From Escherichia coli (lineage in GTDB: Bacteria > Pseudomonadota > Gammaproteobacteria > Enterobacterales > Enterobacteriaceae), in NCBI RefSeq assembly GCF_003334315.1, contig NZ_QOWR01000005.1: 64,000 bases of DNA; one strand, written 5' to 3'. Both the position numbers and the translations under genes were made by a program. Shown piece by piece: positions 11,990 to 60,815 of the stretch. Below the pieces are notes generated by a model that ran no database searches, was not told the origin of the DNA, and saw only the letters and a program-made list of their open reading frames with translations. How positions within the stretch are numbered: position 1 is the first letter of the stretch; every line of letters begins with the position of its first letter.

Positions 11990-13108
11990 ATGCATAACCA
12001 GGCTCCAATTCAACGTAGAAAATCAACACGTATTTACGTTGGGAATGTGCCGATTGGCGATGGTGCTCCCATCGCCGTACAGTCCATGACCAATACGCGT
12101 ACGACAGACGTCGAAGCAACGGTCAATCAAATCAAGGCGCTGGAACGCGTTGGCGCTGATATCGTCCGTGTCTCCGTACCGACGATGGACGCGGCAGAAG
12201 CGTTCAAACTCATCAAACAGCAGGTTAACGTGCCGCTGGTGGCTGACATCCACTTCGACTATCGCATTGCACTGAAAGTAGCGGAATACGGCGTCGATTG
12301 TCTGCGTATTAACCCTGGCAATATCGGTAATGAAGAGCGTATTCGCATGGTAGTTGACTGTGCGCGCGATAAAAACATTCCGATCCGCATTGGCGTTAAC
12401 GCCGGATCGCTGGAAAAAGATCTGCAAGAAAAGTATGGCGAACCGACGCCGCAGGCGTTGCTGGAATCCGCCATGCGCCATGTTGATCATCTCGATCGCC
12501 TGAACTTCGATCAGTTCAAAGTCAGCGTGAAAGCGTCTGACGTCTTCCTCGCTGTTGAGTCTTATCGTTTGCTGGCAAAACAAATCGATCAGCCGCTGCA
12601 TCTGGGGATCACCGAAGCGGGTGGCGCGCGCAGCGGGGCAGTAAAATCCGCCATTGGTTTAGGTCTGCTGCTGTCTGAAGGCATCGGCGACACGCTGCGC
12701 GTATCACTGGCGGCCGATCCGGTCGAAGAGATCAAAGTCGGTTTCGATATTTTGAAATCGCTGCGTATCCGTTCGCGAGGTATCAACTTCATCGCCTGTC
12801 CGACCTGTTCGCGTCAGGAGTTTGATGTTATCGGTACGGTTAACGCGCTGGAGCAACGCCTGGAAGATATCATCACTCCGATGGACGTTTCGATTATCGG
12901 CTGCGTGGTGAATGGCCCAGGTGAGGCGCTGGTTTCTACACTCGGCGTCACCGGCGGCAACAAGAAAAGCGGCCTCTATGAAGATGGCGTGCGCAAAGAC
13001 CGTCTGGACAACAACGATATGATCGACCAGCTGGAAGCACGCATTCGTGCGAAAGCCAGTCAGCTGGACGAAGCGCGTCGAATTGACGTTCAGCAGGTCG
13101 AAAAATAA
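11990..13108 (+). CDS. ispG: 4-hydroxy-3-methylbut-2-enyl diphosphate synthase
   Basis: 372 aa, [36 protein letters not shown]... Confidence 0.96.
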
Positions 13109-13218
13109 TAACGTGATGGGAAGCGCCTCGCTTCCCGTGTATGATTGAACCCGCATGGCTCCCCAAACATTGAGGGAAGCGTTGAGGGTTCATTTTTATA
13201 TTCAGAAAGAGAATAAAC
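13109..13218 (+). ncRNA. sroE: Candidate 3'UTR-derived sRNA SroE (ispG-hisS intergenic)
   Basis: K-12 has a small RNA processed from the gcpE(ispG) 3' end in this interval (from memory); hairpin GGGAAGCGCCTCGCTTCCC at about 13119-13137. Ends not determinable from sequence. Confidence 0.35.
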
Positions 13219-14493
13219 GTGGCAAAAAACATTCAAGCCATTCGCGGCATGAACGATTACCTGCCTGGCGAAACGGCCATCTGGCAGCGCATTGAAGGCA
13301 CACTGAAAAACGTGCTCGGCAGCTACGGTTACAGTGAAATCCGCTTGCCGATTGTAGAGCAGACCCCGCTATTCAAACGTGCGATTGGTGAAGTCACCGA
13401 CGTGGTTGAAAAAGAGATGTACACCTTTGAGGATCGCAATGGCGACAGCCTGACTCTGCGCCCTGAAGGGACGGCGGGCTGTGTACGCGCCGGCATCGAG
13501 CATGGTCTTCTGTACAATCAGGAACAGCGTCTGTGGTATATCGGGCCGATGTTCCGTCACGAGCGTCCGCAGAAAGGGCGTTATCGTCAGTTCCATCAGT
13601 TGGGCTGCGAAGTTTTCGGTCTGCAAGGTCCGGATATCGACGCTGAACTGATTATGCTCACTGCCCGCTGGTGGCGCGCGCTGGGTATTTCCGAGCACGT
13701 AACTCTTGAGCTGAACTCTATCGGTTCGCTGGAAGCACGCGCCAATTACCGCGATGCGCTGGTGGCATTCCTTGAGCAGCATAAAGAAAAGCTGGACGAA
13801 GACTGCAAACGCCGCATGTACACTAACCCGCTGCGCGTGCTGGATTCAAAAAATCCGGAAGTGCAGGCGCTTCTCAACGACGCTCCGGCATTAGGTGACT
13901 ATCTGGACGAGGAATCTCGTGAGCATTTTGCCGGTCTGTGCAAACTGCTGGAGAGCGCGGGGATCGCTTACACCGTAAACCAGCGTCTGGTGCGTGGTCT
14001 GGATTACTACAACCGTACCGTTTTCGAGTGGGTGACTAACAGTCTCGGCTCCCAGGGCACCGTGTGTGCAGGCGGTCGTTATGACGGTCTTGTGGAACAA
14101 CTGGGCGGTCGTGCAACACCGGCTGTCGGTTTTGCGATGGGCCTCGAACGTCTTGTATTGTTAGTACAGGCCGTTAATCCGGAATTTAAAGCCGATCCTG
14201 TTGTCGATATATACCTGGTGGCTTCAGGTGCTGATACACAATCTGCGGCTATGGCATTAGCTGAGCGTCTGCGTGATGAATTACCGGGCGTGAAATTGAT
14301 GACCAACCACGGCGGCGGCAACTTTAAGAAACAGTTTGCCCGTGCTGATAAATGGGGTGCCCGCGTTGCTGTGGTGCTGGGTGAGTCTGAAGTGGCTAAC
14401 GGCACAGCAGTAGTGAAGGATTTGCGCTCTGGTGAGCAAACGGCAGTTGCGCAGGATAGCGTAGCCGCGCATTTGCGCACGTTACTGGGTTAA
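13219..14493 (+). CDS. hisS: Histidine--tRNA ligase
   Basis: 424 aa; GTG start at 13219; [18 protein letters not shown]... Confidence 0.96.
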
Positions 14494-60734: not shown

Positions 60735-60815
60735 GGCCTGATAAGACGCGTGAGCGTCGCATCAGGCATCGTTCACCATTGCCGGATGCGGCGTGAACGC
60801 CTTATCCGGCCTACG
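60735..60815. repeat. BIME: two REP elements
   Basis: GGCCTGATAAGACGCGTGAGCGTCGCATCAGGC and TGCCGGATGCGGCGTGAACGCCTTATCCGGCCTACG. Confidence 0.7.

Follow-up and report, generated by a model that had tools for sequence, protein, structure and literature searches.

The ispG–hisS spacer of Escherichia coli is the sroE locus and contains the hisS promoter

What does the short spacer between ispG and hisS of E. coli encode, and is the small RNA that comes from it a regulator in its own right? We analysed this spacer in a stretch of E. coli DNA of 64,000 nucleotides (the window; positions are counted from its first letter unless K-12 coordinates are given). The first-pass annotation had described a 110-bp spacer with a stable hairpin just after the ispG stop and had stated that K-12 makes an sRNA, SroE, from this 3′ UTR. 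All of this is borne out: the spacer spans 13109–13218 (110 nt, + strand), the hairpin lies at 13118–13136 and folds far better than shuffled sequences, and the identity with SroE rests on a full-length match to Rfam RF00371 and on the K-12 annotation b4761. The genes, the sRNA and its structural elements are as follows:

11990–13108, + strand: ispG open reading frame, with its stop codon at 13106–13108 (NCBIfam NF001540, 528 bits)
13108–13199, + strand: sroE (SroE small RNA), from the Rfam RF00371 match and the K-12 b4761 annotation
13118–13136, + strand: hairpin 1, formed by GGGAAGC, a 5-nt loop and GCTTCCC (fold −15.9 kcal/mol)
13146–13192, + strand: hairpin 2, with a closing stem of TGAACCC (13146–13152) and GGGTTCA (13186–13192)
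13193–13199, + strand: T-run (TTTTT, then AT) adjoining hairpin 2, a terminator-like tail and the annotated 3′ end of SroE
13219–14493, + strand: hisS, with a GTG start at 13219 (TIGR00442, 523 bits)

Identity and fold of the spacer element

A scan of the whole window against Rfam returned sroE (RF00371) at 113.1 bits (gathering score 51, E = 2e-27), covering positions 1–92 of the 92 in the model. In K-12 MG1655, the ncRNA sroE (b4761) is annotated at 2640595–2640686 (−), has the same length of 92 nt and stands in the same register as the window element; the 5′ end of this annotation is the last base of the ispG stop. The alignment to the annotated sroE that the first-pass annotation had proposed as a check keeps this register and gives 91 identical bases out of 92, the single mismatch being at 13164 (C here, G in K-12), in the apical part of hairpin 2. 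The genomic context is also that of K-12, with the element between ispG (gcpE) and hisS, on the same strand and in the same gene order. The window element and SroE (RF00371; b4761) share position (beginning at the ispG stop and ending 20 nt ahead of the hisS GTG), length and two-hairpin structure, and the substitution at 13164 is no difference of substance. The first-pass annotation had held that sequence could not define the ends of the RNA; homology sets them at 13108–13199.

All 5,426 complete E. coli genomes carry the sroE segment exactly once and on the chromosome, and 714 of them have the 92-nt allele of the window at an identity of at least 99%. In PGAP-annotated genomes only ispG and hisS are annotated under the sroE match and there is no sroE feature, so that the element can look unannotated. 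The interval is nonetheless the sroE locus: this is a re-identification of an already known, annotated sRNA, and the identity itself adds nothing new. Northern and cloning work by Vogel in 2003 is said to stand behind the discrete SroE transcript of about 90 nt.

Hairpin 1 (GGGAAGCGCCTCGCTTCCC, 13118–13136) begins 10 nt past the ispG stop codon. On its own it has a z-score of −4.0 relative to dinucleotide shuffles, with only 1 of 200 shuffles folding as well, and it extends to 10 bp over 13116–13138. It lies within the ispG 3′ UTR and also covers that part of the hisS promoter (described below) which comprises the −35 and the spacer. Hairpin 2, which is larger and was absent from the first-pass annotation, folds at −23.1 kcal/mol (RNA 13146–13199, z = −4.4) and is flush with the U-run, whose five U correspond to the T at 13193–13197. 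Taken as a whole, the 92-nt element has a folding energy of −40.9 kcal/mol (z = −5.6; none of 200 shuffles was as good), and its minimum free energy structure, made of the two hairpins, is the Rfam consensus structure.

Elsewhere in the window, naRNA4 (RF02564, nucleoid-associated ncRNA 4 / CssrE) matches at 60735–60811 on both strands, scoring 92.6 bits (− strand) and 60.8 bits (+ strand) against a gathering score of 59.5. From its sequence, this interval looks like a REP/BIME-type palindromic element.

The hisS promoter inside sroE

Published 5′-end data show that the hisS promoter sits inside sroE. TSS-seq mapped a TSS at U00096.2 2638663 (−), 45 nt into sroE, and the upstream sequence printed for this TSS ends in ...GTGTATGATTGAACCCG (Kim 2012, PMC3415461). 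An independent dataset, from SMRT-Cappable-seq, lists capped full-length transcripts of b2514, b2513 and b2512 (hisS-yfgM-bamB) that start at U00096.3 2640641 (Yan 2018, PMC6131387). Both methods enrich primary 5′ ends. With the genome-version offset of 1978 nt (U00096.2 to U00096.3), taken from the sroE coordinates, both starts fall on the same base, 2640641, which is G13153 of the window. The promoter and leader comprise:

13117–13122, + strand: weak −35-like hexamer TGGGAA (PWM scan; matching at 3 of 6 positions and placed 17 nt upstream of the −10)
13140–13145, + strand: TATGAT, the −10 hexamer of the hisS promoter, identical in all 42 aligned Enterobacteriaceae species and the best −10 score in the spacer
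13153, + strand: TSS of the hisS-yfgM-bamB mRNA (U00096.2 2638663 = U00096.3 2640641)
13153–13218, + strand: hisS 5′ UTR of 66 nt, from the two TSS datasets, with an SD-like AAAGAGAA at 13206–13213 before the GTG

G13153 lies 7 nt after TATGAT and one base past the 5′ arm of hairpin 2. TATGAT has the A at position 2 and the T at position 6 of a sigma-70 −10, with the start 7 nt downstream. The best promoter that the PWM scan returned in the spacer, TGGGAA-N17-TATGAT, has a predicted +1 within 1 nt of the mapped start, and TGGGAA is the putative −35. In Klebsiella and Siccibacter the best promoter in the same type of scan is T(T)GGGA-N18-TATGAT, where TTGGGA has 4 of 6 −35 matches. A simple promoter scan of 12500–13700 found nothing; the −35 is too weak for its rules and the scan is hence uninformative here.

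As a consequence of this arrangement, SroE and the hisS 5′ UTR have 47 of the 92 nt in common (13153–13199), that is, the 3′ half of SroE. Because the TSS at 13153 and the invariant TATGAT both lie inside sroE, the conservation that defines the sroE family coincides with the hisS promoter. This promoter region was reportedly sequenced by Eisenbeis and Parker in 1982.

The mapped start also bears on how SroE is made. The first-pass annotation had called SroE a possible processed sRNA. This is plausible for the 5′ end at 13108, where no promoter is placed to start an RNA; the only TSS mapped in the spacer is the internal one at 13153.

One other promoter candidate near the 5′ end of sroE, TTGACG (13083)-N15-AATAAT (13104), spans 13083–13109, overlaps the ispG stop codons and has a good PWM score, with transcription predicted to start around 13116, at the base of hairpin 1. 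It was not adopted, given that the −35 belongs to the coding sequence (Ile-Asp-Val), that only a short spacer separates the two hexamers and that the TSS table has no entry for it (Kim 2012). The same study lists a second hisS TSS at about 12842 (U00096.2 2638974), inside ispG and 377 nt upstream of the start codon (PMC3415461). Transcripts from this start would run through both hairpins.

Conservation of the spacer and hairpin 2 as a possible terminator

We compared 80 ispG loci from different species, chosen by protein and not by spacer. The ispG–hisS synteny and the GTG start of hisS are found in all 80, with spacers of 13 to 241 nt. Among 42 aligned Enterobacteriaceae species, the blocks conserved at 90% or more are TGGGAAGC, GCTTCCCGTGTATGATTGAACCC, GGGTTCATTTTT and AGAGAA-AAACGTG, and every column of GTGTATGATTGAACCC reaches at least 90%. 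As a neutral baseline, 12% of 147 four-fold degenerate sites of ispG reach 90%, and the longest run of such sites is 2. Nearly all Enterobacteriaceae loci have a T-run of 5–8 T that abuts the hairpin and lies 21–24 nt upstream of the hisS GTG.

Both arms of hairpin 1 are conserved at 90% or more in these 42 species, with a variable loop. The closing stem of hairpin 2 is likewise kept in sequence, while its interior varies in both sequence and length. Paired cells amount to 96% overall and 99% for hairpin 1. Compensatory changes numbered 2 in hairpin 1, each confined to a single sequence, and the closing stem of hairpin 2 showed none; since both stems are nearly invariant in sequence, the covariation test is uninformative on RNA structure. 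Conservation of the stem sequences themselves, beyond their ability to pair, points to a constraint on the specific sequence. The Rfam sroE model scores 104 bits in Citrobacter, 75 in Klebsiella and 58 in Enterobacter, and has no match in the more divergent or insertion-bearing spacers.

Several spacers depart from this plan. Two Pseudocitrobacter loci (L008 and L009) carry about 75 extra nt in the hairpin 1 loop (spacer positions ~13–110). This insertion leaves both arms intact, displaces the putative −35 and brings ATGACG 16 nt upstream of TATGAT; Rfam returns no match for it. An uncultured Cedecea (L039) and 'Klebsiella' sp. BIGb0407 (L046) carry an insertion of about 125 nt in hairpin 2 (spacer positions ~50–210) that forms its own long hairpin of −50 to −60 kcal/mol, with the closing stem and the T-run retained, which suggests a MITE-like element. 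Six loci from Erwinia and some Pantoea (L050, L064–L066, L068 and L069) have spacers of 13–82 nt without the module of hairpin 2 and T-run. In L069 only 13 nt separate the genes, and hisS transcription must therefore come from within or upstream of ispG.

Does hairpin 2 act as a terminator? It has the shape of one, with a GC-containing stem (13146–13192) that directly abuts UUUUU (13193–13197). As in known intrinsic terminators, a closing stem with GC pairs is followed by 5–8 U and the interior is free to vary, and in Enterobacter hairpin 2 is compact, with a 6-bp stem, a 5-nt loop and U6. It differs from such terminators in that the E. coli hairpin is long (47 nt), has internal loops and contains a promoter that fires from within. 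A simple terminator scan of 12500–13700 missed hairpin 2, which is too irregular for its rules, so that this result is uninformative.

In vivo, hairpin 2 would be a leaky, weak terminator at most, because read-through transcripts are recorded and no curated 3′ end is listed. Published Term-seq tables for three conditions, which are threshold-limited and may miss weak termination, have no curated 3′ end at the SroE terminus (2640580–2640609; Adams 2021). The SMRT-Cappable-seq operon table, also threshold-limited, has no class ending after ispG, and it holds the read-through classes ispG-hisS-yfgM (start 2641981) and rodZ-ispG-hisS (starts 2642925 and 2643004) (Yan 2018, PMC6131387). Our literature search for a terminator between ispG and hisS found no report. 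Another possible role of the conserved T-run is to enhance translation, as an AU-rich stretch ahead of the weak SD and the GTG start of hisS. Within the hisS ORF, Term-seq gives strong curated 3′ ends at about 13360 and 13511 (K-12 2640434 and 2640283), some 141 and 292 nt past the start codon, with scores of 44,933 and 276,771 (Adams 2021). These ends could reflect premature termination or processing within hisS.

The hairpins open to read-through RNA and to RNA from the −10 were compared at 67 loci, namely those with TATGAT or TATAAT before the T-run. A terminator-configured hairpin is possible in read-through RNA at 63 of the 67 loci (median −21.9 kcal/mol) and in RNA started 7 nt past the −10 at only 4. 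A strong −10 is found in the linker only at 42 loci, inside hairpin 2 only at 18 (one of which, L008, is an insertion artefact), in both places at 2 and in neither at 1. This complementarity between linker and hairpin involves about three independent lineages and is suggestive.

Three architectures can be distinguished. Enterobacteriaceae carry the −10 in the linker. Pantoea and Tatumella have TATGAT in the hairpin loop, and their linker site is decayed (TGTGAT, TTGACT). Serratia and Chimaeribacter have a near-consensus TTGAAN-N18-TATAAT within hairpin 2, in its 3′ half. The internal starts predicted for Pantoea and Serratia lie about 28 and 31 nt upstream of the GTG. At the equivalent place of the spacer, Affinibrenneria (L078) has TTGAAG-N16-TATAAT, with no recognised hairpin 2. 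On comparison of these spacers, a terminator-evading geometry appears to have been kept in the three architectures across Enterobacterales; the −10 would have relocated and the old site decayed.

It is possible, and we suggest it tentatively, that the spacer acts as a conserved insulator, a promoter inside a terminator, in which hairpin 2 would damp transcription from rodZ-ispG and hisS RNA, with its promoter always positioned for a start past the 5′ arm, would escape.

Origin of SroE and competing explanations

We consider it very likely that the locus is composite and combines an SroE homologue, the hisS promoter and a leaky terminator or stabiliser for ispG RNA, with SroE itself as a remnant. 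The hisS promoter fires at G13153 and yields the hisS-yfgM-bamB mRNA with its 66-nt leader. Since these transcripts start one base past the 5′ arm of hairpin 2, they cannot form the closing stem and would pass freely. Hairpin 2 and the U-run would act only on RNA derived from rodZ or ispG, either stabilising its 3′ end or serving as a leaky intrinsic terminator.

SroE may then be the stable two-hairpin remnant of such upstream transcripts, from the ispG 3′ UTR. Its 5′ end would arise by cleavage in the AU-rich region of the stop codon. For its 3′ end, termination at the U-run and RNase E-type cleavage at AU|AUU, where the annotated 3′ end falls when read from the sequence, are both possible. 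Most likely, SroE is a piece of the ispG 3′ UTR that processing or termination leaves behind in stable form, and probably a by-product rather than a dedicated trans-regulator. CpxQ from cpxP and SroC from gltIJKL are processed 3′-UTR sRNAs with validated seeds and targets. SroE resembles this class in lying in a 3′ UTR, in having a 5′ end without its own promoter and in ending at a hairpin and U-run; it differs from CpxQ and SroC in having no validated seed or target and in a body that holds the promoter and start of the next gene.

An alternative that we find unlikely is that SroE is a trans-acting, Hfq-associated 3′-UTR sRNA with the linker GUGUAUGAUU (13137–13146) as the seed that pairs with target mRNAs; conservation would then be due to the seed, either instead of the hisS −10 or in addition to it. 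SroE is indeed on record as an sRNA, its 3′ end has a terminator-like hairpin and a U-tail, and the linker is both unpaired and invariant. It was counted among the Hfq-associated sRNAs of nitrogen-starved E. coli (PMC12539622), was 1.75-fold lower in a Klebsiella hfq mutant (PMC3136514) and showed a weak in-vitro interaction with ligB mRNA by EMSA (PMC6172242). Yet ligB was the single binder, as 9 of 10 predicted targets did not bind in vitro (PMC6172242), overexpression of SroE had no phenotype in biofilm, motility or fimbriae (PMC4606813), and SroE expression is constitutive, its level being unchanged across growth conditions (PMC12266141). No SroE target with compensatory-mutation proof is reported in the literature examined, and the U-tail has only 5 U. 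Moreover, the only conserved unpaired stretch coincides with the −10 and discriminator of hisS, and two datasets place the TSS 7 nt past this −10. Erwiniaceae and Yersiniaceae have a degraded linker sequence (TGTGAT, TTGACT), with TATGAT or TATAAT inside hairpin 2 instead, a pattern that a promoter requirement predicts and a seed requirement does not. Finally, RNA-seq and Hfq-IP reads of 'SroE' are inseparable from the hisS 5′ UTR, because 13153–13199 is common to both; only reads over 13108–13152 point to SroE without ambiguity.

The proximity to a tRNA synthetase gene invites another explanation, in which the element is a cis-acting hisS leader or attenuator that senses tRNA-His or histidine, like a T-box or a leader peptide; a T-box-like cis-regulator of hisS has been proposed (Barquist et al. 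2013, PMC3632133). T-box leaders do sit upstream of aminoacyl-tRNA synthetase genes, including hisS in Firmicutes (PMC2965389), sroE is always immediately 5′ of hisS, and its terminator-like hairpin and U-run lie 21 nt before the hisS start codon. In read-through transcripts, hairpin 2 could tune the upstream transcription that reaches hisS. By TraDIS, sroE was 'required' in two Salmonella serovars (PMC3632133), which is most simply explained by insertions that destroy the promoter of the essential hisS gene. We nevertheless rate a dedicated leader as very improbable. The main start at 13153 leaves hairpin 1 and the 5′ arm of hairpin 2 out of the leader made from the hisS promoter, and RNA started there keeps the inner stem only (−10 kcal/mol), which ends 8 nt before the U-run and folds no better than shuffled sequences (z = −0.06). 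The interior of hairpin 2, the would-be sensor, is hypervariable and almost absent in Enterobacter. Over 12950–13350, sroE was the sole Rfam family to match at E ≤ 10, with no hit to T-box (RF00230), a His leader or any other family. Compared with T-box leaders (RF00230), sroE is similar in its place upstream of a tRNA-synthetase gene and in its terminator-like hairpin, but it is too short, has neither a specifier loop nor a T-box motif and contains the main start inside the element.

As a leader-peptide candidate, we considered and rejected an ORF of 46 aa at 13155–13295 (+) with 6 His codons. Only Escherichia and Citrobacter conserve its ATG, which is absent in Klebsiella, Kluyvera, Enterobacter and others. 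The ORF starts 2 nt after the hisS TSS, would be nearly leaderless and overlaps the hisS start out of frame; it is probably due to chance.

Least credible of all, to the point that we give it almost no weight, is that the hairpins are chance or generic REP-like palindromes with no specific role. The RepRanger table does label sroE as containing 'REP' (PMC12306157). However, the pattern of hairpin 1 occurs once in the window and the 92-nt element once per E. coli genome, the fold is far better than that of shuffles, and the stems are kept in more than 40 species while neutral sites diverge. On this single copy per genome and a conservation above that of neutral sites, we rejected a REP or other dispersed repeat.

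For the composite locus that we favour, the useful addition to the first-pass annotation is the overlap of sroE with the promoter, TSS and 5′ UTR of hisS, which it had missed. Because of this overlap, several high-throughput signals assigned to SroE are confounded with hisS, and any sroE knockout also hits hisS expression. Caution therefore applies to reads counted for SroE, to its co-purification with Hfq, to its 'essentiality' in transposon screens and to the phenotypes of its deletion, all confounded by the essential neighbour hisS. If the spacer does act as an insulator, 'SroE' would be a terminated or processed by-product, and many RNA-seq, Hfq-IP and TraDIS signals would report on the hisS promoter and leader. 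We regard the terminator-evading promoter geometry as a testable hypothesis and not as an established fact. Should it prove functional, the spacer would provide a tidy example of how packed operons insulate and re-initiate transcription.
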